The notes below the pieces were generated by a model. The model was not told where the DNA came from. It searched no databases and saw only the letters and a list, made by a program, of their open reading frames with translations. Positions 2,888-61,998 of a stretch of 64,000 nucleotides of DNA are shown one piece after another (within the stretch, counting starts at the first letter, position 1; each line of letters starts with the position of its first letter). The stretch is from an uncultured virus (IMG/VR IMGVR_UViG_3300028586_000757) (Duplodnaviria; Heunggongvirae; Uroviricota; Caudoviricetes): IMG/VR virus record IMGVR_UViG_3300028586_000757; one strand, 5' to 3'. A program made the position numbers and the translations under genes.

Positions 2888-3077
2888 GATGACCTTCTAG
2901 AGGAGAATGGTCACCTGTAAGCACCTCGTTTAGCCCCTTTATGGTGATGCTGCTATGTTAGTGGGCAAAAAAAGCAGCGCACAATGTGCGCTGCAGAATG
3001 GGCATCAAAAGAAACCGAGGTCAGTTACCCCGATTTGAGTTCTAGACTGCGTGGACTGATATGTATCGGTCACCTGG

Positions 3078-3344
3078 TCAAGCGCCGGCCGGAATGGTCA
3101 GCGATTTCAGTTCATCGACCACTTCACGTGCACTTGCGACTACCTTGGTAGGGCCTGTTCCGTAACCAGGTTCTGGGCCGGTATGAAGGCCATAACCTTG
3201 GTTTTCCCTAACTTCAACGGACACGCCCTCGAGCGAGTCTGTGAAGTCTAACCAGCAAATAGGCAACTTCGTGCCATCACTGATAAAGTTTGCGGTAGGC
3301 ATCTCAGCCTTCAGCAGCTGGGTCAATTCGTCGTACAGGCTCAT
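3078..3344 (-). CDS. Hypothetical protein
   Basis: RBS AAGGAG; last gene of a minus-strand run. Confidence 0.6.
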   Translation of the reverse strand: MSLYDELTQLLKAEMPTANFISDGTKLPICWLDFTDSLEGVSVEVRENQGYGLHTGPEPGYGTGPTKVVASAREVVDELKSLTIPAGA

Positions 3345-3382
3345 GGTTCGCTCCTTCGCGCAAGAATACGGATATTCTACTG

Positions 3383-3670
3383 TTACTGGGCAGCCGCCGG
3401 GTCTTCTGGTCTGGCGAGTACTTCGCCGACAATGCGGTGGTGACTTGGCAGGCCGCCGCCCTCAACTGAAGCACGGCTCCATAGCTGTCCATTCTGGTCG
3501 ATGAGCATGCCCGCGGCAGAACGTTTCTCGAATCGACCGTGCCAAGTGCCGATATCTGGGTCGCATTCGGAGCAGAGCGCAGGCAGCTTGTCTAAGGTGG
3601 TACGGCTCCAGTAATTGCAGCAGGCGGTGTTTTCGACACAACCACACTGGGTGCAAGCGAATATTGGCAT
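3383..3670 (-). CDS. Cys-rich hypothetical protein
   Basis: CTQCGCVENTA, LCSEC; RBS AAGGAG. Confidence 0.7.
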   Translation of the reverse strand: MPIFACTQCGCVENTACCNYWSRTTLDKLPALCSECDPDIGTWHGRFEKRSAAGMLIDQNGQLWSRASVEGGGLPSHHRIVGEVLARPEDPAAAQ

Positions 3671-3672
3671 GC

Positions 3673-4086
3673 TCAAGCTCCTTGAAGGGTGCCAGCGGAA
3701 GCAGGAGCTCCCAGAAGGCTTTCGGCCCAGGCGCAGAAGCGTTCACGCGTGAGCTTGCACGCTTTCTTGCCGTAGATGCCTTGGTCGAAAGGGACAAACG
3801 TCTTGGTTACGATAGCATGCTTGCCGTACGTGGAAATACGCAGGTCGCCGCCCCAGCCTCCTTGCCACCAGAGCGGGGCCAAGCAGAAGAGTTCCATGTC
3901 CCAACGCTCGTCCGACTCTTTGTGTCGTAACGACCACTTGACCAGAAGCTTGCCCGAATTCGGCTCGTAGGTTTCACGGCCGAGAATCTCGAACCCATAT
4001 GCCTGCGCTATTTTGGCAGCTGCCTTATTCAGGCTAAGCCGTTGGGCTGGCGTGCCGGTAGGCTCAGTTGTGGTGCTTATGTTCAT
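3673..4086 (-). CDS. Hypothetical protein
   Basis: RBS GGAG; operon spacing. Confidence 0.6.
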   Translation of the reverse strand: MNISTTTEPTGTPAQRLSLNKAAAKIAQAYGFEILGRETYEPNSGKLLVKWSLRHKESDERWDMELFCLAPLWWQGGWGGDLRISTYGKHAIVTKTFVPFDQGIYGKKACKLTRERFCAWAESLLGAPASAGTLQGA

Positions 4087-12270: not shown

Positions 12271-12930
12271 ATGGCTTCACTGGCCATGACCGCCGGATAC
12301 CTCTACATCGCTCAGGACCCCTCCACGCCTTCGCAGCTGAAAGTGGGCTTTACAACGCGCCCGCCGGCCGAACGCGAGCGAGAACTCCGCGGGTGCGCCG
12401 ATACGAATTTTGAAATTCTGCGAGCCTTCCCTACGCGGGCCGCCAGGGAGGCCGAGACGTTGGCACACGCCTGGCTAGATGACTTGAACTTGCGCGCCCG
12501 TGCAGGTTCGCGCCGTGAACAGTTCGTCGGCGACTTTTCTCAAATTTCTGAAGTATGCGAGCGCGCCGCAGCTGTGGCACAGCCTGCAGTGAACTTGCCT
12601 AAAAAGCTGGTTAGCGAAGACGTCACGCTCGAGCACACCGACCCTTTCTGGACCAATCTGTTGGCTATGCCGGTGCACGTGGCCGGCGAACGAATTACAC
12701 TGGCCATCTTGATGGGCCAAGCACTTACTGGCGCCATCGCCAAAGGAATGCTGGAGCGTCGGTACGGTATTGCCTGCACCGGCTTTTCAGAGGAAACTCC
12801 ACAATTTACGGTAGATTGGTCTAAAGCAGAATCTGTGCTAAAATGGCAACTTCAGAGCGGCTATGTAGCACCTTCTACCGCTGAGAGCAAAACCAAAATG
12901 AAGGCAACCTGGCTTGAAACTTGTACATGA
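12271..12930 (+). CDS. GIY-YIG-type (T5orf172-like) domain protein
   Basis: GYLYIAQD...LKVGFTTRPPAERERELR...AETLAH...REQF. Confidence 0.75.
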   Translation: MASLAMTAGYLYIAQDPSTPSQLKVGFTTRPPAERERELRGCADTNFEILRAFPTRAAREAETLAHAWLDDLNLRARAGSRREQFVGDFSQISEVCERAAAVAQPAVNLPKKLVSEDVTLEHTDPFWTNLLAMPVHVAGERITLAILMGQALTGAIAKGMLERRYGIACTGFSEETPQFTVDWSKAESVLKWQLQSGYVAPSTAESKTKMKATWLETCT

Positions 12931-25480: not shown

Positions 25481-25653
25481 GGTATCGCGGCGCCTAGAAA
25501 GGCTTCCGGACGACCAAGCTTTACCGACTACGGCTCCTTTCAGGAGCCGTTTTTCTTTGTCATCCGGGATTGGCCAAACGTTCGGCGCTCCCGAAGGTGG
25601 GACCTTGGTATCTATAATTGGGTAGGAGCTTCTGGCTCTCGGGTTCAGCGCCC

Positions 25654-25747
25654 GCCGTCCTCGCTCCGCAAGGAGTCCGGTTAAACCCTGAATACACCCA
25701 AGCCCTTACTTTCCAATCCCTGAATTGGTTGTTTCGGCAATGAGGAC
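25654..25747 (+). ncRNA. Candidate structured leader RNA, copy 2
   Basis: GCCGTCCTC...TCGGCAATGAGGAC; GTCCTC/GAGGAC stem; GCTCC-GCAA-GGAGT hairpin; TATAAT at 25614. Confidence 0.65.
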
Positions 25748-25789
25748 ACCGTACACAAAAAAGGCCAATCCTGATGAAAGGAAGTCAAC

Positions 25790-26530
25790 ATGTCGGACAC
25801 TATCAAAGCCCAGTCGTTTGTGCTCGCACGCGCGCTGGAGAAACTCGGAATCCGCCTGTCGCACGGTAACGCCCTGGATGTCATTGCGCAACTGGAAGGG
25901 GCCGAGAGCTGGAATCATTTTCTGGCTAAGCAGCCTAAGACCGAGCCTCCGCAGGACTGCGCAGCAGTAGCACCGGAACGACGCGCATTGGCGGAACAAG
26001 CTGCGGCTGAAGTCGCAAGCACTGCCGGCTCGACGTACGCTCCGGGCGACCAGGTGTCTGTGCTGGTATCTGGGGGCCTGGACGCCCCGCTGCCAGTCCA
26101 TGTGCGGACCCTGCACAATCCGGAGGACCTGCTGCAGGCATCGTTACGTCTGCTCATGGCTGAGGAGGACTCACAGCCGAGGCTCTACCAGAAGGTCACG
26201 CTGGAACAAACTGCCAAAGGCTTCTCTGTCATTAAAGTAGAACCGCTCACGAGAGATGCGTTGACAAGCGCATCGGTGAACATCGAGTTGCGGCCTGCAC
26301 GCCCAGGGGAGCAGATGGTCATGTGTCCACTTAGCGGTCTGATGTATAAGCCGCGCAGTGGTCGGTTCAACGTCGCCATGCACTATGTCGGCGTGTTTCT
26401 GCCGGGAGAGGCCTCTCCCGTCATGAAGGCGCTCGTGCCCGCCCGTGTATGGGATGCTGCCCGCTCGCCTGGAGCAAAGTCCTTCCGGCTCTCGTTGGGC
26501 GAGATGGCTGCCGCCTATCACCAGCAGTAA
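25790..26530 (+). CDS. Glyoxalase-superfamily-like N-terminal domain protein
   Basis: LEKLGIRLSHGNALDVIAQLEGAESWNHF. Confidence 0.7.
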   Translation: MSDTIKAQSFVLARALEKLGIRLSHGNALDVIAQLEGAESWNHFLAKQPKTEPPQDCAAVAPERRALAEQAAAEVASTAGSTYAPGDQVSVLVSGGLDAPLPVHVRTLHNPEDLLQASLRLLMAEEDSQPRLYQKVTLEQTAKGFSVIKVEPLTRDALTSASVNIELRPARPGEQMVMCPLSGLMYKPRSGRFNVAMHYVGVFLPGEASPVMKALVPARVWDAARSPGAKSFRLSLGEMAAAYHQQ

Positions 26531-26605: not shown

Positions 26606-29101
26606 TCACTGCGATGACAGCAGGCTTGGTTCGAGTTGGTCGCAACGTGCGCAGAGCCCCGAGGGTACTAAGCCGCGATGCCGACGACAGCGAGGGCAGC
26701 GAAGCAGCTCCGTCCGACGGCACGCCACTCGGTATTCAGCGCCTGCGGTGCGCTCCACCCGAGCGCAGTCGAAGAAATCTTCCAGCACATCGGTTGGCAC
26801 GTCCGCCGGCAGCGTCACTTGGAGTTCCAGCTGTGCTGGCCCCTTCAGGCTCTCGTCACGATTTGTCTCGACAAACTGATTCACCTCGCGACGCAGTTGG
26901 CGTAGGCCGGCCAGAACGCCTTGGTCCTGAAGCGCCGGCAGGACCACGTCGGCCAGCTGCAGCTCCAGCGAAGTCACTGCGCTATCTTCGCGTAGGTTCG
27001 GACGCATCAGCTGATACGCTTCCTCGGCCGTGTAGGGCAGGAGCGGCACGAACAGCCGTACCAGCACCGCCATCACGGTTGCGAGTACCGTTTGTGCTTC
27101 GCGCCGGCGAGGTGCATCCGGAGCATCGCAGTAAAGGCTATCCTTCACCGCGGTGAAGTATTCGCTGCTGGTAGCTTCGCAATACAACGCCAGGGCGCTG
27201 CTAACGCCGGCGAAGTCATATTGGTCAGCCGCAGCCTTGGCATCGTGAACCAGCTGGGACAGCTCGGCCAGTTGCCAGACGTGCAGGGTGTTCGTCACCG
27301 GAACTGCCTGGTCAAACTTGAAGTCCGCGGTGTTTTGCAGACAGAATCGTAGCGTGTTGCGAAGCTTGCGATAGCGCTCTGCCGTGCGCTCGAGCGACTG
27401 TGCCGACATGGTCAAGTCGCGAGTGTAATCTTGGGACAGCGCCCACAGGCGCAGCACGTCTGGGCTGTGCTTGGCCAGCATCTTGTCCATCGACTCGTAG
27501 TTGGCGCTGGACTTCGAGAACTTGCGCCCCTTCTCATCGAGGACAAAACCGTGCGTGAGCACAGTCGAGTAAGGCGCCGCACCGTGCAGGGCCATCGAAG
27601 TCAAGAGCGACGACTGGAACCATCCGCGATGTTGGTCAGAGCCTTCCAGCACCAGGTCGGCCGGTCGGCCAAAACGCTCCCGCATTACGAGCTCATGCGT
27701 CATACCACTATCGAACCACACGTCGAGCGTACGACGTCCCTTGTCGCGCTGCCATGCTTCAACGCCTTCCTGCGCGACCGCCTCGAGCAGCTCCGGCGCG
27801 GTACCCGGTTCAGCGAGCGGGGTGCCCCACAGGCGATTACGCGATAAGCACCAAGACGTGCGCGTGGCGAGCATGGAGGAGAGTCGTTCTCGTCCCGTGC
27901 TTGGAACGAAAGAGACATTTTCCAGTGCTTCAGCTGCTTTTGGCGCTAGCTCGGTCAGGTCCAGGAACCACTCTTCCGAGGCTTTAAAGAACAGCGGCGA
28001 CTTGTGGCGCCAGCAATGTGGATATTCGTGCTGCACGGTAGTGCGTGAGTACAGAAGGTCTTCCAGGGTTTCCAGCACCGCTTTGCCGGCGGCAGCCAGG
28101 CCGAGCCCCTGCAATGGACCCGCCAGGAAGCGCCCATGGTCATCAACGAAGTGGTCGGCGGACAAGCCATAGGCTTCGCCAACCCGGAAGTCGTCGGTGC
28201 CAAACGACGGGGCCAGATGCACCAGGCCGGTGCCGGAAGTGGTCACGTAATCGGCGGCCACCACTGGCACGAGTGCTTTGGTGTAGGGGCTCACCGCGCG
28301 GCGGCCGGCCAGGTCAACCGATACGAGTTCAGGCGCGTCATCTTCTCGACGAACCCGCACCAGGTGGCGCTCGCTGTCGGTAACGCGCACATAGTCGAAA
28401 GCCGCGTTGTAGGCAACGCCGCGGTTGGCGGGCAGGGTGTAAGGCGTCGTGGTCCAAACCTGCAGGAAGGTGCCGGGTTCGCCGTCTAGCTCGAAAAGCA
28501 CCTCGACGCTGTCTGACTGGCGCTCTTTGTATTCAACCTCCGCTTCAGCGAGCGATGAGGCGCAGGCCGGACACCAGTGCACGGGGCGTAGGCGCTTGAC
28601 CAGTTGCGGCAGGCGAGAAAAGGCTCGCGCCGCGCCAGCCTCGAAAGCCGGGGCCATCGTACGGTAGGCGTGGGCCCAGTCCGCTGACACGCCAAAGTCC
28701 TGGAACTGGCGAGTCTGCTTGTCGACCTGTCCGCCTGCGTAGGCGCGGCAGGCCGCAACAAACGCCTCCGGGTTGGTCTTCTCGTGGCCCAGTTTCTCGA
28801 CTTCCAGCTCGACTGGCAAGCCGTGGCAGTCGAAGCCAGGGACGAAGGGGGCGAAGTAGCCGTCCAGGCGCTTGAATTTCAGCAGAGCGTCTTTGAGGCT
28901 CTTGTTGACGAAGTGGCCCAGGTGCAGGTCGCCATTCGCGTAGGGTGGACCGTCGTGCAGCAAAAAGGTTGGCCGGCCGGCGGCATCGCGGTGAAGATAG
29001 TTCACCACAGAAGGAGTATTCCACAGCGCATGCGCGGCGGACTTATCCAGGTGGCGGGCGGCAGTCTCGAAAGACGATTTGAAGAGGTTCAGTTGGTACA
29101 T
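26606..29101 (-). CDS. ileS: Isoleucyl-tRNA synthetase, 831 aa
   Basis: LHDGPPYANGDLHLGH, PGFDCHGLP, WTTTPYTLPAN, EGSDQHRGWFQSSLL, KFSKS, C-terminal CPRC..CARC; RBS GGAG before ATG29101. Confidence 0.95.
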   Translation of the reverse strand: MYQLNLFKSSFETAARHLDKSAAHALWNTPSVVNYLHRDAAGRPTFLLHDGPPYANGDLHLGHFVNKSLKDALLKFKRLDGYFAPFVPGFDCHGLPVELEVEKLGHEKTNPEAFVAACRAYAGGQVDKQTRQFQDFGVSADWAHAYRTMAPAFEAGAARAFSRLPQLVKRLRPVHWCPACASSLAEAEVEYKERQSDSVEVLFELDGEPGTFLQVWTTTPYTLPANRGVAYNAAFDYVRVTDSERHLVRVRREDDAPELVSVDLAGRRAVSPYTKALVPVVAADYVTTSGTGLVHLAPSFGTDDFRVGEAYGLSADHFVDDHGRFLAGPLQGLGLAAAGKAVLETLEDLLYSRTTVQHEYPHCWRHKSPLFFKASEEWFLDLTELAPKAAEALENVSFVPSTGRERLSSMLATRTSWCLSRNRLWGTPLAEPGTAPELLEAVAQEGVEAWQRDKGRRTLDVWFDSGMTHELVMRERFGRPADLVLEGSDQHRGWFQSSLLTSMALHGAAPYSTVLTHGFVLDEKGRKFSKSSANYESMDKMLAKHSPDVLRLWALSQDYTRDLTMSAQSLERTAERYRKLRNTLRFCLQNTADFKFDQAVPVTNTLHVWQLAELSQLVHDAKAAADQYDFAGVSSALALYCEATSSEYFTAVKDSLYCDAPDAPRRREAQTVLATVMAVLVRLFVPLLPYTAEEAYQLMRPNLREDSAVTSLELQLADVVLPALQDQGVLAGLRQLRREVNQFVETNRDESLKGPAQLELQVTLPADVPTDVLEDFFDCARVERTAGAEYRVACRRTELLRCPRCRRHRGLVPSGLCARCDQLEPSLLSSQ

Positions 29102-29116
29102 GAGTTTCGGCTCCAG

Positions 29117-29197
29117 AAAAAGAGAAGGCAACTTGTCCGGTTGCCTTTGAGCCGGTACAGATAGCAAAAAGGCAACCGGGTCAGGGTTGCCTTTGAG
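29117..29197 (-). terminator. Tandem attenuator terminators upstream of ileS
   Basis: Two hairpins, both starting CTCAAAGGCAACC and closing with GTTGCCTT plus a U-tract. Confidence 0.8.
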
Positions 29198-29216
29198 ATG
29201 CGAGGGATTCGCGGTG

Positions 29217-29300
29217 TTATGCTGACATGCGTAGCCATCCCTGCTGCTCAAGAGCAACCTGGGTGCTAATAATTATGGCGGCGGTCAGTTGGTAATACAT
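29217..29300 (-). CDS. ileS leader peptide MYYQLTAAIIISTQVALEQQGWLRMSA
   Basis: Tandem Ile codons ATA ATT ATT followed by an antiterminator-forming segment. Confidence 0.8.
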   Translation of the reverse strand: MYYQLTAAIIISTQVALEQQGWLRMSA

Positions 29301-44249: not shown

Positions 44250-47200
44250 TTAATGCAGATTGGTGGGCGGTGTAAAATTGCCCGAGTATAAGGCTTCACC
44301 GCGTACGATGCGCACATCGTCCAGTTGACCTGTATACCCCCAGTCCCACGTTCCTCCTTCCATCGTTCCAATGCCTATTTGCTGCGGTGCCGTCAGGCCG
44401 GCATCAAGCGGAACGTTGGTTGTCTTGGACGCGACCTGCACACCATTGATGTACATTTTGAAAGTGGTACCTGCGCGCGTTACTGCCATATGCGTCCACG
44501 TGTTGAGTGGGATGTTCGCAGGCGACATCAGCATTGGTGAGTCAGCGTTATAGTTGTACACAAAGAAGCAGGCCTTATTGCCACAAGCACTGTGCGCAGT
44601 GGTGATGGTCCACTTGCCGCTACCCCATCGCGAAGTGGCGTAGTTCGAAAGGACCACGGATGCCGAACTAGCAGTAGGCCGCACCCAGGCTTCCATCGTG
44701 AAATCGGTAGTACCGAATGCATATGTGGTCGTCGACGGCGTCACCAGGTAGGACCCCTTGGAAGGAAGGAGTGTGGAGCCGGCGCCATCAATGCGGTTGG
44801 CACTCGTGACAGAAGGGGACCCCACCGCTGAAACCGTGCCGCCTGACGAGTCAGTAGTCACAGTTGACTCCCCTAACAGCATTAGGGTCGTGATGGCTTT
44901 GCCATTACCAGGTAGCGTCAAGGTGCTTGGGCTATTGACTGCACTCGACACTACGCTCAACGTACCAGGTACTGCGCCGGCTACTAACGGTGCGAAGCGG
45001 ATAGTCATTGAGCAGGTGGCATTAACAGCGAGCGAGCCGGGTGCGGCGGCCGAGCCACACGTATTGGCAGTAAGGCTCATGCCCGTTCCGGTAACTGCCG
45101 CGATAACGCCATTCGCGGGAGTATTGCCGACGTTGGCGAACATGAACGAGCGTGAGACCGCTTCGCCAGCTGCTACATCACCGAAGTTGCTGTCGGTATC
45201 TGCAGTGAGCTTACCTTGAGCTTGAATCCCGACTCCATTGACCGCAAGGGCTTGTGCTCCATTGGTGGCGCTCGACCGGACAATCAATTCGCCAACAGAT
45301 GCTCCACTAACTTGCGGTGCGAATTGAACCGTCATTGCGCAGCTGGCACCTGCAACCAGCGACACCGGCGCTGCTGCTGTCCCGCATGAACTGGCTAGGA
45401 GACTAAGGTCCGTTCCAGAGATACCTGCGTTGACGTTTACGGCAGCTTTCGTACCGGTGTTGCTGAACGTGAACTTACGCTGTGCTGTAGAGCCTACTTT
45501 TACGTCGCCGAAGTCTGCCGAGGAGTCTGCAGTCAACTGCGCGAGCGCGCCCATACCTTTGCCGGTCAGGTCGAAATAGAACTTACCGTGGGTGCTTAGT
45601 AAGGCTATGCCACCCGTACGGGGGCCCACCGCGGAAGGGGCAAACGTTAGCGAGATAGTGCAGGACGCGCCAGGAGCCAGAACCGGACCGCAGTTATTAG
45701 TCTCGGTAAAGTCAGTCAGACCCGTCACCCGGGAGATGCCCTGGATAGTGAGAGGGCCGTTGCCCTTGTTGCTGAACACAAGATTTCGGATTGCGCTGGT
45801 CGCACCCATGTCGGTGTTCAAAAAATTGATGCTGTAGTGCGTGTACCCGTCCGAGGTAGGCGCGCCAGGTGTCACGTCGTCTGAGGGGTCGATAGCGGGT
45901 GCTGGCTCGGTGCCAATTCCGGACAAGCTTACCCGATAGGTGCCCATGGGGCTCGTGACCGACCAAATGCCGCTACGTTCGCCGGCCGCCGATGGCAGGA
46001 ACTGGATGGTTACTGCACAGCTAGCACCGGATGCGAGGGTCGTGCCGCAGTCAGTTGATTGTGTGAAATCGGTACCGGCCTGGCTGATGCCCATGGCCGA
46101 GAGCGCAGCGACATCAGAGGACTGATTGGTCAGCGTGAAGCGGGCGGGTGACGCCAGTTGACCTACGTTGGTCGCAGGGAAAGGTACAGAGACCGTCGAT
46201 AGTTTTAGTTGTGGGGTCTCCGCACGGCCACCCAGCCCAACGTTGTATGTGCCGAAGGACGTAACCAGGGAAAGAGCGCCTGCACGTTGACCGGGCAGTG
46301 TCGGGGCGAACTGGACGTTGACCGTGCAACTCGTGCCAGGGCCTAGGTCAGTGCCGCAGTTGTTCGACTGCCCAAATTCTGAAGCGGACTGACTGACGCC
46401 TAGGCCCGTGACGGCTGCGGGGTATTCCGTAACATTACGGACAATCAGGCTGAGCGGATTAGACAGCTGGCCAACGTAAGTCTCAGGGAAGTTCAGATTC
46501 CACGAAGACAGGTCTAGCTGCGGGTTGACGCCAGAGCCGGACAGGCCGACGTGGGCAACAGACGAACCATTAGATGTCACCACGATGTCGCCGGCATGGG
46601 CTGCGGTGGTGTTAGCACTAACCCCGATGGGCGCGTATCGAACACTAAGAGTGCACGACGCACCTCCAAGGAGCGAAGGTCCACAGCTGTTAGATTGGCT
46701 AAATTGGTCTCGGCCGGCGTTGACGCCGATGCTATTTATCGAAACGGGGGATTGCCCGTTATTGGTCAGCGTAACGGACTGGACCGGGGAAGATGTTCCA
46801 ACGCGCGTAGCCGGGAAACTCAGGCTCGAAGGGGACGTCGACAATTTAACTGCTGTACCGACGACATTTACGGTTGCGGCGCCTCCGTTAGCAGAGCGCA
46901 CTTGGAAGCTGGTGCTGACGGCACCGTCATTGGTTGGAGCGTACTGCAACCTCAACGTACAGCCCTTAGCAGGTGCCAGCGTCTCTACGCAATCGCCATA
47001 GCCGACAGCCAGTCGGCTGTCCGTGTTCACTACCGACAGGCCCGTCAACGGCATATTACCGCTATTGGCCAAACTTACCGATTGAACTGCGCTAGTGCCC
47101 GGAAGGACAACTGCGCCTAGCTGTAGCGTGGAGGGGCCTACGGCCAGCACTGCCGACTGACTGGTGCCAGTTAAGGGCAACAGGGCTTGCATGCTGTTCG

Positions 47201-48584
47201 TGAGCGTCGTGGCAACCCAGCCGGAACGCGGTCCAGGGGTAGTCGCGTTGAATGTTACAGTCACGGTGCAGGACGCACCAGGAGCGAGTGAGGTTCCACA
47301 ATCGCTGGTCTGGTTGAAGCTGTCAGACCCGTGGCCCACCTGGAGCCCTTTTATTGAGGCGGCAGTGGCGCCGGAGTTGGTCAGAGTCGTCTGTAGCGAA
47401 GCCGGATGCCGCGTTGGAATATCGCCAAAAGCTAATGCCGCAGGAGTGTATGACAACTGCGCTACCGGCTCCGTCGTAGGGCTACCGGCGGTGGAGCCTG
47501 TGAGGGCTAAGTCCGCTCGAACGCCATCTTGCGCCTGTGCTACCACGGTGTAGCCCGCTTGATAGCGGGGAGCTCCTGCCTTAAATGTTACTGAAACGTT
47601 GCAGCTCCCGCCAACTGCCAGCGTGGTCGGGCAATCGCTCACAATAGCAAAATCCGGATTCGGCTTCGACAGGGTGAACACAGCAGGTGCCGTGCCTGTA
47701 TTGGTCAGCTTAGCCGTCTTGGTGGCGCTAGTGCCGGGTTCCAGGGGTCCGTAAGACAAGATAGCCGTGTCAAACGATAGTGCCGGACGCTTGGCGGGGT
47801 CGCTTTGCACGTATGCGTAGAGTGTTAGCGGTGCCACGACGCCAGGTGCGCCAGACGTGATGTTCAACACCTTGGAGTGGTCTTTGGGGACATACGAAGA
47901 GAAGGTTGCTGCAATGTCGCAGTGCGCCCCCGCCGGCAGCACGGCTGGGCAATCGTTGGCCACCTCAAATCCATTACCGGACGTAAGTCCTCCCAAAACG
48001 GCGTCAGCATCGCCAACATTGCTCAAGGTGGTGCTGCCTGCACCACCTTGCCCTGGCCTGAGTGCGGTACCCAGGACAATCAAGCGGTCACTAAGCCGAA
48101 GCGCAGGGGCGGGACCAGAAGCCGCACGCGCGAATGTAGTCAGTTGCAAAAACCGTGGAACCTCAAGGTCAGGTGCTGATAGCACCATCTGGTATTGCGT
48201 TCCCGGGATTGCTGCTTCGGTGGGTGTTACTGACACACTGCACGGCACTCCTACCGGTAGCGGCGACGGGCAGCTATGGGTAACCGAGAAATAGGTATTG
48301 GAATCAAGGCCCGTGACCGCGACTGGCTTTTTGCCATTATTCGTGAGCACACTTACCTGCGGCTCACGCAGCCCATTCGTTACGTCGAATAGCTGCGAAC
48401 TAGGTGAAATTCTCAGAACGGAGGCAGAGGGGTCGTCTCCGACATCAATGGCTCCGTCTCCATCTCCTAGTGGAGCGGTACGAATCTGGAGTCCCAGCGG
48501 AATGCGGTACTCCTGTGTGGCTGCCAAGACAGGATGCAGTGTAGTGAGCGCTACCATTAGGTAGCTAACGATTTTTCGGGACAT
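44250..48584 (-). CDS. Large secreted adhesin-like protein with about 11 Ig-like (choice-of-anchor D/ASH-type) repeats and a C-terminal LamG domain
   Basis: Repeated L.F.....G..S....LTN.G...F.Q...CG..LA.GASC...V.F.P; DFTMEAWVRP..WTHMAVTR..GQLDDVRI. Confidence 0.85.
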   Translation of the reverse strand: MSRKIVSYLMVALTTLHPVLAATQEYRIPLGLQIRTAPLGDGDGAIDVGDDPSASVLRISPSSQLFDVTNGLREPQVSVLTNNGKKPVAVTGLDSNTYFSVTHSCPSPLPVGVPCSVSVTPTEAAIPGTQYQMVLSAPDLEVPRFLQLTTFARAASGPAPALRLSDRLIVLGTALRPGQGGAGSTTLSNVGDADAVLGGLTSGNGFEVANDCPAVLPAGAHCDIAATFSSYVPKDHSKVLNITSGAPGVVAPLTLYAYVQSDPAKRPALSFDTAILSYGPLEPGTSATKTAKLTNTGTAPAVFTLSKPNPDFAIVSDCPTTLAVGGSCNVSVTFKAGAPRYQAGYTVVAQAQDGVRADLALTGSTAGSPTTEPVAQLSYTPAALAFGDIPTRHPASLQTTLTNSGATAASIKGLQVGHGSDSFNQTSDCGTSLAPGASCTVTVTFNATTPGPRSGWVATTLTNSMQALLPLTGTSQSAVLAVGPSTLQLGAVVLPGTSAVQSVSLANSGNMPLTGLSVVNTDSRLAVGYGDCVETLAPAKGCTLRLQYAPTNDGAVSTSFQVRSANGGAATVNVVGTAVKLSTSPSSLSFPATRVGTSSPVQSVTLTNNGQSPVSINSIGVNAGRDQFSQSNSCGPSLLGGASCTLSVRYAPIGVSANTTAAHAGDIVVTSNGSSVAHVGLSGSGVNPQLDLSSWNLNFPETYVGQLSNPLSLIVRNVTEYPAAVTGLGVSQSASEFGQSNNCGTDLGPGTSCTVNVQFAPTLPGQRAGALSLVTSFGTYNVGLGGRAETPQLKLSTVSVPFPATNVGQLASPARFTLTNQSSDVAALSAMGISQAGTDFTQSTDCGTTLASGASCAVTIQFLPSAAGERSGIWSVTSPMGTYRVSLSGIGTEPAPAIDPSDDVTPGAPTSDGYTHYSINFLNTDMGATSAIRNLVFSNKGNGPLTIQGISRVTGLTDFTETNNCGPVLAPGASCTISLTFAPSAVGPRTGGIALLSTHGKFYFDLTGKGMGALAQLTADSSADFGDVKVGSTAQRKFTFSNTGTKAAVNVNAGISGTDLSLLASSCGTAAAPVSLVAGASCAMTVQFAPQVSGASVGELIVRSSATNGAQALAVNGVGIQAQGKLTADTDSNFGDVAAGEAVSRSFMFANVGNTPANGVIAAVTGTGMSLTANTCGSAAAPGSLAVNATCSMTIRFAPLVAGAVPGTLSVVSSAVNSPSTLTLPGNGKAITTLMLLGESTVTTDSSGGTVSAVGSPSVTSANRIDGAGSTLLPSKGSYLVTPSTTTYAFGTTDFTMEAWVRPTASSASVVLSNYATSRWGSGKWTITTAHSACGNKACFFVYNYNADSPMLMSPANIPLNTWTHMAVTRAGTTFKMYINGVQVASKTTNVPLDAGLTAPQQIGIGTMEGGTWDWGYTGQLDDVRIVRGEALYSGNFTPPTNLH

Positions 48585-55703: not shown

Positions 55704-56083
55704 GCCATCTCCACAGTACTCGCATTCCAAGCCCGCCTTCTGGCGGGTTTTTGTTTGCGCAGCGCGCAGTCGTTTGGTGGGACTAGGCCCTAAATCTCGC
55801 ACATTGCCAGCCTACCTCAGAGTTGCTTCTGTAACGACGAATTCAGAACTTCTGGCCCAGTTGGTACTGGAACGAAAGAGGGCAACGGCGCGAGCTAGCT
55901 TAGCTTCGGTTAAAATGCGGACTGGAGCCGGGCACCAGGGCTCGTGCATTGGTCACTGCAGTCGATTCGCTGCTCAGCTCAAGATGGCACTCTCGCCCTA
56001 AAAGTAGTTCTATCCTAGTAAGAATCGTGGAACGCGCCATCGCGCCGCGTTGTTGTAGAAATCACATCTGTAAGAGGTCCTGT

Positions 56084-57067
56084 ATGTCACTTCGCGCTCC
56101 TGGCGATGCTCGCCCTTATGAAGTTCTTCAAGAGGCGCTAATGGACCTTGTCTCTTGTCTCAAAGCCTTCGTTCCTAGCCGAGTGTGGATGGTAACTCGC
56201 GTGCATGGTGACGACTGGAACGTTCTTTTGGTCGACGATTCGGAAAACGAAGTAAAAGCGGGCATGGTGTTCCATTGGCCCGATTCTTACTGTTCGCGTA
56301 TGGTCCAAGGCGTCGCCCCTCGTTTTGCGCCTGACGCCCAGGCTATCCCTGAGTATGCCAAGGCGGAAATTAACCGCTTGATGCGCATTGGGTCATACAT
56401 CGGCCAGCCACTTCTCAGCGCAGACGGAGGGCTCCTTGGCACGCTCTGCGCAGTAGATTCCGCCCCGCGCGATGCCTTTACGCCGGACCAAATCTTATTG
56501 GTGGAGACCATCTCACGCACGATGAGTACGCTGATAGGGGGAAAGCTGATGCTGGAGCAGCTCCGCCAGGCGGAAGCCAGGCAGCGCTACCTTGCTGAAC
56601 TGGACGCGCTCACGGGACTGTTGAACCGGCACGGCTGGGAGCTTGCATTGGCTGAAGAGGAGACCGCACTCAAGAACCTTGGAGGAAACGCGATGGTCAT
56701 GATGATTGACCTCGACGGATTGAAACAGGCAAATGACACGATGGGCCATGCGTTCGGCGACCAATACATCCAAAACGCGGCTCAAACGTTACGTCGGCAG
56801 CTTCGCGAGGCAGACATCATCGCGCGCCTCGGTGGCGACGAGTTCGGCGTTATCGTATGTGACACGACCAAGGACGATGCTGAGCTACTTCACCAACGGG
56901 TTCGGGCAGCATTTGAGGAGGCTGGCGTGCCCGCCTCAACGGGCTTCGCGATGCGGCTTTCGTTCCGCACGCTCACTGAGACGCTCGAAGCGGCAGATGC
57001 GCGGATGTACGAAGACAAGATAGCTCGTAAGCGTGCCGCAGAGGACAACGACCTTAGCTCGGCGTAA
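56084..57067 (+). CDS. GAF-GGDEF diguanylate cyclase
   Basis: GSYIGQPL..GTLCAVD; DALTGLLNR, DLDGLKQAND..GH..GD, ARLGGDEF. Confidence 0.92.
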   Translation: MSLRAPGDARPYEVLQEALMDLVSCLKAFVPSRVWMVTRVHGDDWNVLLVDDSENEVKAGMVFHWPDSYCSRMVQGVAPRFAPDAQAIPEYAKAEINRLMRIGSYIGQPLLSADGGLLGTLCAVDSAPRDAFTPDQILLVETISRTMSTLIGGKLMLEQLRQAEARQRYLAELDALTGLLNRHGWELALAEEETALKNLGGNAMVMMIDLDGLKQANDTMGHAFGDQYIQNAAQTLRRQLREADIIARLGGDEFGVIVCDTTKDDAELLHQRVRAAFEEAGVPASTGFAMRLSFRTLTETLEAADARMYEDKIARKRAAEDNDLSSA

Positions 57068-58033: not shown

Positions 58034-58750
58034 TTACTCTGATACTGGCAGCTGGTCGAGCAGGTGCTCGCGCTCGCGCTCAGTCAGCTGAATGCCCAGC
58101 ATTCCTTCGGCTCGATAGAACGCTCCTTCGCGCGCGCTGTCGTCGACGCCGCGCTCGGCGTAGTACGCCAGGTAGGCTTCGATGAGCTTGGCGCGCACCG
58201 GAAGGGTTTCATCGTACTCTGGGTCGCCGCAGTCTTTCGGCACCAGGACAACCGGGCCAGTGTACATCTCGCCGTCATCCGGCAGCCACATGATGTTGCG
58301 GTCCTGTACCTGGGTTTCCATGGTGTCGTCGAACGTGGTTGACCCTCTGTGCTGCACATTCATGCCCGAGCCTCCGATGCCTTTGTCGCGCGGGTCGACC
58401 GCACGGCTGGCGGAAACCACGTACGCTTTGGCTTCGATAAGCTCGAAAGTCCCCTCCAAGCTCGTGAAGTCGCCCTTGAGCGGAATGCCTTCTTCACCTG
58501 GTGCGATGAAGTCGAATTCCCCATTGTTGGTCAGCGGGTACTTCGGCAACAGGGGAGCCGGCTCTGCTTTCTCGGACGTCAGCGTTGCTTCCCAGGCGTT
58601 CCAGGATGCGAAGCCCTGAGCCTTGGCCAGGACGTTGAGGCAGTCGGTGTGCGAGAGGGATGCCGTTCCTTTGTCGAGAGCTTGCAGTTCACGACGCAGG
58701 GCGGATACGAGGGTCTTGGCTTTCTCTTTCGAGACGATATTGAGGTTCAT
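58034..58750 (-). CDS. Glyoxalase-superfamily-like N-terminal domain protein
   Basis: ALRREL..LSHTDCLNVLAKAQGFASWNAW; RBS AGGA. Confidence 0.7.
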   Translation of the reverse strand: MNLNIVSKEKAKTLVSALRRELQALDKGTASLSHTDCLNVLAKAQGFASWNAWEATLTSEKAEPAPLLPKYPLTNNGEFDFIAPGEEGIPLKGDFTSLEGTFELIEAKAYVVSASRAVDPRDKGIGGSGMNVQHRGSTTFDDTMETQVQDRNIMWLPDDGEMYTGPVVLVPKDCGDPEYDETLPVRAKLIEAYLAYYAERGVDDSAREGAFYRAEGMLGIQLTEREREHLLDQLPVSE

Positions 58751-58809
58751 GGTGTAATTCCTGATAGGCCTTGCCGGCCGGTGACGCCGTGACGCAATTG
58801 TCACGTGCT

Positions 58810-58907
58810 GTTCGCATTGCCAAGCAAGGCCCGGATTTACGGGATTTTGTCTGCATGGTAGGTCCTATGAAGCAATTAGCCTTACCTCGGAATGAGGCGC
58901 GAACGGC
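58810..58907 (-). ncRNA. Candidate structured leader RNA, copy 3
   Basis: Minus strand GCCGTTCGC...TTGGCAATGCGAAC; GTTCGC/GCGAAC stem; GCCTC/GAGGT hairpin. Confidence 0.65.
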
Positions 58908-59109
58908 GGGTAGCTCTTCCCAGGGACTAGAGGATAGTCTCGATTTCCCTTCCCCGTATAGCTAGAGCCCTTTTGTGCGACGAAAGATGCACTTTATGGA
59001 ATGCGTTGGAAACGTGAGGGAAAAAGAACCTAAAACTCGACCATGAAATACACCGAAAACGGAGAAACGGGGGTACGCCATACTGGCAGTGCCTGGTGAG
59101 GTTAGCAGC

Positions 59110-59131
59110 GCCAAGCAAGGCCCGGATTTAC
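59110..59131. repeat. 22-bp repeat A, identical to 58819-58840
   Basis: GCCAAGCAAGGCCCGGATTTAC. Confidence 0.95.
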
Positions 59132-59241
59132 AGTTCTTTCCAGGGGTGTTCTAAAAAGCAATAAGTATCCGGATTATTGTGTGTAATCTAAAATATCGTG
59201 CTAGACTTGAAACGTTTGTAAACTAATTCTGCTTAGTAGTA

Positions 59242-60984
59242 TTGACCTCCGCAACGTCCACTGTTGAGTTGCCTCGTGCTTACGCCTGGCGCATAGCACC
59301 AGAGCTGAACGCAAGCAAACGCTCGCGGCTCGATGCTTTGCATCGGGAATGGCAGCGAACCCTTGCTACCGCTTTCACCTGGTTCTGGCAACCGTTCCTG
59401 CGAGGCGGGCTCTTGCCGCACAATCCGCCCCGGTCGGGGCCGATGTCCACGTTTCCTCATACCCGCCTTGTCACGTCACAAAAAGACCTGATGGCGGTCG
59501 CCCTACAAGGGCAAGCCAAGAGTTGGGCAAAGAACCTTCAACGTCGCATCGCTCGAACCATTATGCACAGTGCTACGCTCGCGCTTAATGAGCCTCTTCG
59601 TCGTGAACTGCTGTGGGTAAATTCCATGCACGCTTGGCTACTGCCGTACCGGCAGCAATGCGACTTGCTTGCCACTGCGCCTGCAAAGAAAGACAAGCTT
59701 CCTGCCCTATCAGCCTACGCTTCTCGCACCATGCGCAAGCTGGTACGGCGCTATATCGAGCTACACCGACTCCCAGACCCGATGCAGCTACCGCTGCAGG
59801 TCAACCAGCTCTCGGCAGTGCTGGCCGACGCCAGTAATACTATGTCACTTTGGGCGAATCGGTGGCTGCGTGTGTCGACACTCGAGCGTGGCCAGAAGAT
59901 GAGTATTCCAGTCATGAATAACCCTTACGCTCGGCGTAAGGGTGGTCGCTTCGCGACCACCTTTTCGCTGTTCAAGCGTGGGGAAGAATGGTTTGTCGTG
60001 TCAACTCGGTACGTTCAACCCCAACATTGGGCCGAGCACCGTACCGGTGTGCTCGCTATCGACCTGGGCTTGAAGAATCTGATGGCGACGTCGGAAGGCG
60101 ACCTGTATGGTGTTGGGTTTCTCGACAAGCTCAAGCGGTATGACACGCAATTGCTCAAGCTTCAGCGAGGGCTGCAGGCCGCGGGTGTTCGCCGACTTTC
60201 TGAAGCGAAGCGATATCGAGCATTGGTGCGCCGGCTGCAGGGCTTTCTCAAAACGACTATTCAGACGGCGCTCAACCGCGTGCTGGACGTGCGCCGACCG
60301 AAGACGGTCGTCATTGAAGACTTGCTGTTTGCCGGGCAGCCAGGCGAGTTGTCACGGCGGATGAACCGGCTGCTGCGCCGGTTCGGGCAGCGGTATTTTA
60401 CACAGACTCTTGAAGAGCGTCAGGCTGAGCGGGGATTTACGCTGGAGCGTGTGGACCCTGCGTACACCAGCCAAGCCTGCTCGTCGTGCGAGTTCGTTCA
60501 CCGAAATAACCGCCAGGGCAATAGTTTCAAATGTGTGTCATGCGGGCGTCACGCCCATGCCGATGTCAATGCTGCGAAAAACCAGCGAGAACGTTTCTCG
60601 AAGGCCGCAGCTGGAAAAGACACTGGAGCATACGTGACGGTCGCAACGCGATGGGCGCGGGCCCTGGACAATTGGTGCGGCAGGCTCGCCCGCACGATTG
60701 GACAGACAACCCCCGACTCACCGCGGCAGTACCGCGCCGTTGGTGGCGCGAGAGCGGGCTTGGCCGCGCTGCTGGAAAGCAAAAGCTCCGCCATACGGCT
60801 GAGCTTGGAAACGAAAGAGCAGCTGAACCACTGCCTTTCAGCCAGTAATGCGTTAAGTCTTCTTGCAGGACTATCTGAGGTGCATTTCGCAAACCGTGGT
60901 TTGCGAAATTCCACAGGACAAGCCAGACAGCCAAAGCAATTAGCCATACCTCGGAATGAGGCGCGAACGGCGGGTAGCTTCTGA
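59242..60984 (+). CDS. tnpB: TnpB/Cas12f-like RNA-guided nuclease with a long C-terminal extension (start uncertain)
   Basis: RuvC-I LAIDLG, RuvC-II VVIEDL, PAYTSQACSSC..FKCVSCG Zn finger, RuvC-III HADVNAA. Confidence 0.88.
   Translation: MTSATSTVELPRAYAWRIAPELNASKRSRLDALHREWQRTLATAFTWFWQPFLRGGLLPHNPPRSGPMSTFPHTRLVTSQKDLMAVALQGQAKSWAKNLQRRIARTIMHSATLALNEPLRRELLWVNSMHAWLLPYRQQCDLLATAPAKKDKLPALSAYASRTMRKLVRRYIELHRLPDPMQLPLQVNQLSAVLADASNTMSLWANRWLRVSTLERGQKMSIPVMNNPYARRKGGRFATTFSLFKRGEEWFVVSTRYVQPQHWAEHRTGVLAIDLGLKNLMATSEGDLYGVGFLDKLKRYDTQLLKLQRGLQAAGVRRLSEAKRYRALVRRLQGFLKTTIQTALNRVLDVRRPKTVVIEDLLFAGQPGELSRRMNRLLRRFGQRYFTQTLEERQAERGFTLERVDPAYTSQACSSCEFVHRNNRQGNSFKCVSCGRHAHADVNAAKNQRERFSKAAAGKDTGAYVTVATRWARALDNWCGRLARTIGQTTPDSPRQYRAVGGARAGLAALLESKSSAIRLSLETKEQLNHCLSASNALSLLAGLSEVHFANRGLRNSTGQARQPKQLAIPRNEARTAGSF
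60884..60909. other. Perfect hairpin, candidate element right end or omega-RNA stem
   Basis: ATTTCGCAAACC-GT-GGTTTGCGAAAT. Confidence 0.55.
60934..60979. repeat. 46-bp repeat B, 45/46 identical to 58870-58915
   Basis: AAGCAATTAGCC(T/A)TACCTCGGAATGAGGCGCGAACGGCGGGTAGCT. Confidence 0.95.
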
Positions 60985-61076
60985 CCCCTGCTCAACATAG
61001 CAAGGCGCCAATCGTAGACAAGAAAAAACCGCCAGTCCCGTGGACATGGCGGTTTGAATTGGTTCAGGCTGGTAGG

Positions 61077-61826
61077 TCAGAGACGCTTCGAGGGCACATC
61101 GAAGCCCAGCCCCTGCAGTGTGCTCTTGTCGATGTTTGTGTCCAGTACGCCGTAGGGCCAGTGCTCCAGGAAGCCTTCGTCGTCCATGCCGTGCACGGAC
61201 AGGCCTTCGTTATCGCCATGCAAGCAGATGAGCAGCTCGCGGTGCAGATTGAGGGCCACGAGGGCGTTGACCAGCGTCATGACCAGGCCCTGGCTGAACG
61301 TGACGACCGCGAGGACGGTGCTTGTTCCGTGCTGACGAACTGCGTGGAACTGACGCAGCACCTCGATGGCGGCCGCAGCTTCCGTGCGAAGCACTTCAGG
61401 AGCGATAAGCAGATGCGACGCGCGTTCATACAACGTTTCGTGAACGCCGGCGAGTTCCGCGATGTCGCGAACTCGTTCACGCAGTGCACGGCGGGTCGCA
61501 ACTTCGTCACCAGGTGTGCAGAACCGTTCAAGACCCGGTCCCACGTGGAGTACGATGCGCGGCAACCGCTGAAAGGGCGCGCCTGAATCGAAGTGTGTGA
61601 CAGTGGCGAGCGCGGCATCGAAACGGCGGTCGATTTCTGGGTACTCGTCCTGGGTGAAGTGTGCCATCAGCTCCACAAACCTCGCCTGGCGCTCTGCGTT
61701 CGGTGAAGCAGCAGGGCTCAGATGCTGGCGGCTGAGTGCCACGTGGCGGGGCACGGAGATGTCGTCACGGGTGTCTGCCACGGCCAGCTCGATGAGTTCG
61801 TTTAGCAGTGTTTCCTTATTCGGCAT
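61077..61826 (-). CDS. Hypothetical protein (paralog of 61999..62556)
   Basis: PRIVLHVGPGL..APEVLRTEA..WPYGVLD. Confidence 0.7.
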   Translation of the reverse strand: MPNKETLLNELIELAVADTRDDISVPRHVALSRQHLSPAASPNAERQARFVELMAHFTQDEYPEIDRRFDAALATVTHFDSGAPFQRLPRIVLHVGPGLERFCTPGDEVATRRALRERVRDIAELAGVHETLYERASHLLIAPEVLRTEAAAAIEVLRQFHAVRQHGTSTVLAVVTFSQGLVMTLVNALVALNLHRELLICLHGDNEGLSVHGMDDEGFLEHWPYGVLDTNIDKSTLQGLGFDVPSKRL

Positions 61827-61998
61827 GGTGTCCTTGTTGGCGCCGTAGCGCTTGTTGTTGAATGGGAGTCTATGCCCGGTATAGTTATTAAACAACGGAG
61901 CATGGCCCGAAGGCGTGGACCGTTGCTGTAGCTGCTGCAACAAAAAGCCGCCGGGTCACGAGGACGAGGCGGCTTAAATCAGTTCAGGAAAGCGAAGC

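Follow-up and report, generated by a model that had tools for sequence, protein, structure and literature searches.

TnpB proteins have been described in transposons of the DDE type: Altae-Tran et al. (2023, PMC10691335) distinguish six DDE-associated TnpB branches (DDE-1 to DDE-6), all of which have inverted terminal repeats. According to the text of that paper, the 3' end of tnpB lies no more than 250 bp from the transposon end, and solo TnpBs share their ends with transposase-bearing elements and are presumably mobilized in trans. IS630 is the only family that the main text names for the DDE branches, and the supplement text lists ISL3 only as the name of a profile; a 2026 review, in the part available to us, lists ISL2, IS630 and IS1031 for DDE-linked TnpBs (PMC13565253). 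ISL3 elements have repeats that begin with GGC, and are flanked by 8-nt direct repeats (PMC11448079, as far as its accessible text goes). IS200/IS605 and IS607 elements have neither inverted repeats nor target duplications, and insertion of IS200/IS605 elements takes place next to a short motif (PMC13565253, same part). Here we analyzed a stretch of 64,000 nucleotides from an uncultured virus (IMG/VR IMGVR_UViG_3300028586_000757), called the window below. Positions 59163-60932 of the window probably represent a non-autonomous insertion with ISL3-type ends, which would have been placed in trans and whose only gene encodes a large TnpB with an intact RuvC triad.

That tnpB occurs in DDE-type transposons with inverted repeats is already established by the text of PMC10691335; the link to ISL3 is possibly new. 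Full-text literature searches, which for PMC10691335 extended to its text but not to its figures or Additional Files 10 and 11, returned no paper on ISL3-ended TnpB elements. What emerges from the analysis is a coherent group of solo TnpB elements that share ISL3-type ends and have clean 8-bp duplications.

Ends, gene and 3' structure of the element

In a preliminary description of this locus, tnpB was held to have split a copy of a leader RNA, recognizable by two repeated blocks, A and B. These blocks and their order were reproduced by direct reading and by blastn: A (58819-58840), 29 bp and B (58870-58915) are followed by A' (59110-59131), tnpB and B' (60934-60979), with 22/22 identical positions between A and A' and 45/46 between B and B'. 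Each block occurs exactly twice in the window when up to three mismatches are allowed (0 expected from 100 shuffles). The identity of A and A' stops at TTTAC (59127-59131), and the 3' arm of the split copy differs from that of the intact one, both as quoted earlier. The first seven bases of B' (60934-60940) are part of the 8-bp target-site duplication AAAGCAAT, whose left copy (59155-59162) and right copy (60933-60940) are identical at 8/8 positions; the right copy would also be the start of the putative guide. Between them lies the element, 1,770 bp long, with terminal inverted repeats of ~25 bp (59163-59187 and 60908-60932, both listed on the plus strand) and with tnpB as its only gene.

At least 80 loci were obtained in a metagenome scan, and ten of them (L001-L010) are close relatives. 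When window positions 58780-61080 were compared with these ten by blastn, homology started at 59155 (L008), 59166 (L001) or 59261 (L002) and ended at 60934. Neither A nor B nor the DNA between them matched any of the ten relatives, and A and B are thus flanking DNA and not element ends. The relatives lie in other contexts that lack both blocks. The earlier claim that the tnpB element was inserted into a second A/B leader copy, arranged in tandem with the first, is supported. The 23 nt between TTTAC and AAAGCAAT (59132-59154) are leader DNA present in no relative; they are placed outside the element because the relatives' homology and the inverted repeat begin only at 59155-59166. On the right, 60905-60932 is the end of the element and is conserved in relatives from unrelated contexts.

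Family elements start with GGC/GGG-TAT(C/T)CGGATT... and finish with the reverse complement. When the two ends of an element are compared as inverted repeats, 16-24 of 28 positions pair in nine of ten elements, and 11/28 in L003, which has an indel. The window copy has a degenerate left tip (AAG versus GGC or GGG in relatives) and five substitutions in its right repeat relative to L001/L008. Elsewhere in the window the family consensus repeat has no match at up to three mismatches. The flanking repeat of the window copy reaches 10/11 (59155-59165 versus 60933-60943; AAAGCAAT-A/T-AG) when the AAG tip is counted as target; the left end would then be without its three terminal bases, and the extra match may be chance.

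A perfect 8-bp duplication was found in seven of ten independent complete elements: the window element, L001, L002, L006, L008, L009 (identical to L010, L132 and L208; Massilia yuzhufengensis) and L207 (Achromobacter anxifer). L007 was left out of this count since it ends at a contig edge. The rate at which random 8-mers are identical inside the family loci is 2e-5. Three of the perfectly duplicated copies, L001, L002 and L008, are located on one metagenome contig of 1.46 Mb and encode proteins with 72-79% amino acid (aa) identity to the window TnpB. As these three diverged copies each have their own duplication, the family transposed repeatedly in that genome.

The open reading frame (ORF) between A' and B' (59242-60984, plus strand, 580 aa) encodes a TnpB, as had been proposed: it matches Pfam PF07282 (E 7e-18, 64.9 bits versus a cut-off of 26.3) and NCBIfam NF040570, guided_TnpB (102.6 bits versus 100). 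The RuvC residues D274, E359 and D441 and the zinc-finger residues C413, C416, C431 and C434 (CxxC...CxxC) are invariant in an alignment of 14 sequences, and the catalytic D/E/D and zinc-finger motifs align to solved Cas12f/TnpB chains. The homologs terminate with '..NSTR*' at a position equivalent to 60918, so that their stop codon lies inside the right repeat, and all 13 keep the frame open to this stop. In the window ORF the in-repeat stop codon is lost and the frame runs 21 codons further into B'. The AlphaFold2 model is moderate (mean predicted local distance difference test, pLDDT, 68.5; predicted template modeling score 0.38), with helices at residues 467-555 (pLDDT 62-80) and a read-through tail below pLDDT 50.

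The close TnpB family comprises proteins of roughly 510-566 aa with 40-89% identity, from metagenomes and few genomes only; its members occur in Burkholderiales (Achromobacter, Massilia) and in large metagenomic replicons. The closest protein relatives are P0002 (89%) and P0003 (85%), and an exhaustive representative search collected 6,351 relatives at E<=0.001 in the wider superfamily. Viral contigs contained neither TnpB relatives nor an exact match to block B, and megablast of 58700-61100 detected no near-identical DNA in plasmids and phages.

A conserved structure resembling an omega RNA was predicted over the 3' end of the ORF (60733-60909, plus strand), from an alignment of the terminal 233 nt of ten elements that extends to the right tip. 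Its consensus fold contains 27 predicted pairs, with helices at 60733-60750, 60752-60764 pairing with 60852-60864, and 60784-60805. A terminal hairpin just inside the right repeat (60884-60909, plus strand) was read from the alignments and recurs in all members with differing sequence. Standard pairs make up 90% of the cells, compared to 32-48% when the partners are slid by 1-3 columns, and 19 pairs are changed on both sides, compared to 3-7 in the slid alignments. Covariation in the structure is strong, and none of 500 shuffles reached any of the five measures. Structure and placement are as expected of a TnpB omega-RNA scaffold, and we infer this role for the region.

The TnpBs studied so far draw their guide from the DNA 3' of the right end. 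If this also applies here, the flank-derived guide would read from 60933 onward, with the duplication followed by block B' (AAAGCAATTAGCCATACCTC...). This putative guide matches the unoccupied site exactly, and the corresponding part of the intact sister leader (58869-58888) at 18/20 positions by direct reading, with mismatches at positions 1 and 14. In all seven duplicated elements, position -1 and the first base of the duplication are both A; beyond the A at -1, the left flanks of these elements have no conserved motif in common. At -1, three ISL3-type elements that lack a TnpB show a, t and g. The two adenines could reflect a preference of the transposase or a minimal target-adjacent motif (TAM); at n = 7 they are a lead and not a TAM.

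Kinship of the ends with ISL3 elements

A degenerate pattern was made from the family repeats and scanned in a collection of species-representative genomes, where it had at least 126 matches, compared to ~26 expected by chance by our own arithmetic. Thirty long ORFs were chosen from within 130 listed pattern matches and run against Pfam. Three of them, directly adjoining the repeat, are ISL3 transposases (L088, L109 and L150), with E values of 1e-64 to 1e-65 for PF01610 and 292-296 bits for NCBIfam NF033550 (cut-off 180); one is a family TnpB (L132, Massilia), and the remaining 26 are unrelated genes or gave no match. In a tblastn search of all loci with the L088 transposase as query, ISL3 transposase homologs were found in 12 pattern loci. 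The same search detected none in the window and none in any TnpB-bearing locus.

L088 is an ISL3 element of 1,930 bp with the 8-bp duplication ATAAAAAT. Massilia yuzhufengensis G002 contains a complete ISL3 element 2,473 bp long (L287, 1227-3699), which has similar repeats and is flanked by the duplication GTTTAACT; the same genome carries a TnpB element of the family (L208). The ends of the window family are kin to those of elements that encode ISL3 transposases. Having no transposase inside, the window element is at most a non-autonomous ISL3 derivative. Beside distant TnpB relatives (24-49% identity) the ISL3-type tip was seen three times in 148 loci, compared to 3.07 expected. At this chance rate, the ISL3-type tip is specific to the close clade.

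Two of the ISL3-type loci showed additional features. L102 of Paenibacillus validus (3001-4017) is ~1 kb long, has matching ISL3-type repeats and is flanked by the duplication ATCAAAAC; it contains a single ORF of at least 120 aa, with 152 aa, and looks like a non-autonomous ISL3 derivative. L287 is ~900 bp longer than its transposase ORF requires and may hold extra sequence or a passenger.

The interrupted leader and its replicon

The DNA into which the element is inserted belongs to a family of leaders in front of paralogous genes. The intact copy c1 (58800-58921, minus strand) consists of block B as its 5' half (58870-58915), a middle segment (58841-58869) and block A (58819-58840). A diverged copy, c2 (25641-25757, plus strand), is situated upstream of the paralog at 25790-26530 (plus strand). 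The split copy, c3, is divided into a 3' part (59096-59154, minus strand) with A' (59110-59131), a 3' arm that has diverged (59096-59109) and a middle segment of its own (59132-59154), and a 5' half, B' (60933-60987, minus strand; covariance-model match of 35.6 bits, E 1e-6). In silico removal of the insertion yields a c3 unit with a 23-nt middle segment. In its 3' arm, P1 has a mismatch and the conserved GGCAATG is altered to GGCGCTG.

A covariance model built from c1 and c2 matched the window only at 58800-58921 (minus), 25641-25757 (plus) and the B' half (60875-60987, minus), and this model, blastn and nhmmer detected no leader copy there besides c1, c2 and the split c3. The interrupted leader had been counted as a fourth copy; the window holds two intact copies and one split copy, and the contigs of sequencing run X1 contain at least two further leader-like copies that are absent from the window and precede paralog starts. 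In this run, read depth over 58786-58916 was 65, compared to ~18 nearby. A contig joint from 58843 to 60934 with 27 other letters in between was rejected as an excision product; it is a paralogous leader copy.

Alignment and folding gave three helices common to c1 and c2 (P0, P1 and P2), with compensatory changes at two positions each in P1 (GTTCGC/GCGAAC in c1, GTCCTC/GAGGAC in c2) and P2 (CCTC/GAGG in c1, CTCC/GGAG in c2), four pairs in all from the alignment. The c1 leader folds better than its shuffles (z = -2.8). That the leader acts as an RNA is plausible, with few sequences to judge by. Rfam had no match at the gathering score in the whole window and none at E<=1 in 58600-61100 and 25500-25900, and a transfer RNA scan found no genes. 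Searches for targets of the leader middle segments within the window gave short matches at chance level only.

The split copy c3 shares the orientation of c1 and is located ~170 nt upstream of it, directly after a terminator-like hairpin with a T-run (61020-61053, minus strand), read directly from the sequence, that ends the upstream gene 61077-61943 (minus strand). This hairpin puts c3 at the beginning of a new transcription unit. Because the loop is longer than 8 bases, the hairpin is missing from the output of the terminator scan; in 58600-61200 this promoter and terminator scan gave matches no commoner than in shuffles.

The gene served by the intact leader c1 (58034-58750, minus strand) encodes a 238-aa protein of a small family with 20 homologs, all metagenomic and without known function; all eight homologs fetched start at the identical start codon. 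The protein has a weak match to Pfam PF20066 at its N-terminus and shares its N-terminus with the paralog 25790-26530 (BLASTP E 1e-5). On the minus strand, the c1 middle segment contains AGGAC, 7 nt and an ATG at 58856, from which a 55-codon upstream ORF (58689-58856, minus strand) crosses block A (..RKSGPCLAMRT..) and the 3' strand of P1 and overlaps the main start codon out of frame. Judged by eye, two X1 leader copies retain AGGAC, the ATG and four codons in frame with block A, and c3 has none of these. This points to a leader peptide or to control at the level of translation, and not to a free variable segment.

The window TnpB is encoded on a contig of 623,534 bp. Run X1, probably the source sample, covers the whole stretch, and in run X2 from another study both junctions (59130-59280 and 60821-61005) are spanned by short contigs with no differences, so that the insertion is also present outside the source sample. 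Among RNA runs, none was listed as containing the stretch. Most ORFs of the window have no Pfam match. The ORFs include a class I aminoacyl-tRNA synthetase (26606-29257; phrog_12710, E 1e-136), a GAF-GGDEF protein (55949-57067; phrog_14602, E 3e-61), a 1,444-aa protein with immunoglobulin-like repeats (44250-48584), whose C-terminus resembles virion structural proteins, and an ORF with a T5orf172/MUG113 domain (12271-12930, plus strand; GIY-YIG-like). The PHROG matches suggest that the replicon is a very large phage-like genome.

Origin of the insertion and comparison with known systems

According to the proposed history, an ISL3-family DDE transposase acting in trans would have pasted the element into AAAGCAAT, an A/T-rich octamer where block B begins in the upstream tandem copy c3 of a structured leader of ~125 nt. 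The insertion would have separated the 5' half of c3 (B') from its 3' part, made up of the middle segment and A'. The unoccupied c3 site would read ...TTCTAA, one AAAGCAAT and TAGCCATACC.... The structured 3' region would serve as the scaffold of a putative omega RNA and would end at the right repeat, which would make the adjacent flank the guide. The AAG tip, the five substitutions in the right repeat and the lost stop codon make the window copy look immobilized. It can probably no longer be mobilized and may still make protein, with the frame of the nuclease intact.

Several observations weigh against an ISL3-ended insertion mobilized in trans. A clean duplication is missing in three of the ten family elements (L004, 1/8; L005, 4/8; L003, 2/8, or a 9/9 repeat if the left end is set 3 bases shorter), and the two repeats of the window copy match each other at only 16/28 positions, compared to 18-24 in eight of the nine others (11 in L003). 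No contig of the runs X1-X4 joins 59162 to 60941 as an empty-site allele would. Near the pattern matches, 26 of the 30 ORFs were neither ISL3 transposases nor TnpBs, and many of these matches are thus chance or solo ends. No element was found that has both an ISL3 transposase and a family TnpB, which leaves mobilization in trans as an inferred step, and the Achromobacter genome of L207 has only a partial ISL3 match of 42 bits. The structured 3' region is also coding and predicted to be helical (pLDDT 62-80), so that part of its conservation is at the protein level.

A broader history is possible, if doubtful. In it, the clade (at least 43% identical, ~550 aa) would have moved from IS200/IS605 or IS607 hosts to ISL3-type cut-or-copy DDE ends as a transposase-less rider, with an omega-RNA scaffold that ends in the right repeat, guides that begin with the duplication, and a minimal TAM. 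For the window copy, the guide would be identical to the conserved 5' block of the multi-copy leader, and such a nuclease could cut uninterrupted leaders in competing genomes or its own sister copy.

The copy might also have been exapted: an immobilized TnpB with B' as a fixed guide would target the sister leaders, regulating them or cutting rival genomes with an uninterrupted c3, and would no longer serve transposition. Both tips are degenerate and the stop is lost, yet the frame of 559 codons and the catalytic residues are intact. The match of the flank-derived guide to c1, the several copies of the leader family and the identical insertion in a second sample also fit this explanation. On the other hand, a nuclease with an intact RuvC site would damage its own carrier if it were aimed at the leaders there, and terminal decay is equally expected of any old dead insertion. 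TldR proteins are nuclease-dead TnpB regulators that have lost the catalytic residues, and here these are retained. Taken together, we regard exaptation as improbable.

It is more improbable still that the ends belong to another, unnamed family of DDE transposons and merely resemble those of ISL3. Their assignment rests on repeats of ~25 bp and the length of the duplication, with no transposase inside, which leaves some room for this explanation. The motif nevertheless borders three ISL3 transposases confirmed by Pfam and NCBIfam, and a complete ISL3 element stands alongside a family member in the Massilia genome.

There is very little in favor of the history given in the preliminary description, in which an IS200/IS605-type tnpB inserted 3' of a TTTAC TAM, took 60905-60933, regarded as the variable segment of the leader, as its guide, and spared the sister copy because its segment differs. 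The A/A' identity does stop at TTTAC, and TnpB genes lie mostly in IS200/IS605 elements, as stated in the text of PMC10691335. However, the 23 nt of leader (59132-59154) that separate TTTAC from AAAGCAAT occur in no relative, whose homology starts at 59155-59166, and given this gap TTTAC is no evidence for a TAM. The presumed guide is the right inverted repeat, of which 60905-60932 is kept in relatives from unrelated contexts, and the variable segment is instead 59132-59154. Inverted repeats and an 8/8 target duplication are absent from IS200/IS605 elements in the account of PMC13565253. The ORF also failed the models of both classical families, with 42.7 for IS200_TnpB (NF038281, cut-off 425) and 40.4 for IS607_TnpB (NF038280, cut-off 350). 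The escape of the sister copy through a different segment fails because the flank guide B' is 18/20 identical to c1; whether c1 would be cut depends on the TAM. Whether close TnpB homologs recur in such leaders had been suggested as a check; the ten close relatives have neither A nor B. The other early proposal, that A and B are the element ends and the short A-29 bp-B unit an internal-deletion derivative, has a negligible probability: the two blocks have the same order and orientation in the short and long units, but they are found in 0/10 related elements elsewhere, and paralogous genes are preceded both by c2, with its compensatory helix changes (gene at 25790), and by the further X1 leader copies.

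With an ISL3-ended insertion as the preferred explanation, the locus illustrates that tnpB insertions need not follow the rules of IS200/IS605 elements, by which ends, target, TAM and guide had all been misassigned in the first reading. Should the nucleases be active, their guide would start with the target duplication, and the choice of a TAM has to be reconciled with the choice of targets by a DDE transposase. This issue is raised for DDE-linked TnpBs in the accessible part of PMC13565253. The family offers natural material for testing how the two are reconciled.

Compared with known systems, the window element resembles the IS1341 group of IS200/IS605 elements in carrying tnpB only and in having a structured region from the 3' end of the ORF to the right end, and differs from it by its inverted repeats and target duplication. 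With ISL3 elements and their miniature inverted-repeat transposable elements it has in common the GGC/GGG repeats, the 8-bp duplication and the A/T-rich targets (L088, L102 and L287; PMC11448079, accessible text). It differs from them in lacking a transposase and in its cargo, a TnpB of 560 aa and a structured region instead of non-coding filler. For the DDE-associated TnpBs, the covered text of PMC10691335 states no ISL3-type ends, and the clade of the window element may be among the six branches. The stop codon of its homologs lies inside the repeat, compared to a distance of up to 250 bp in the DDE branches described in that text. The likeness to these DDE-associated and solo TnpBs, as the same text portrays them, consists in a tnpB gene between inverted repeats, a 3' end near the transposon end and presumed mobility in trans.

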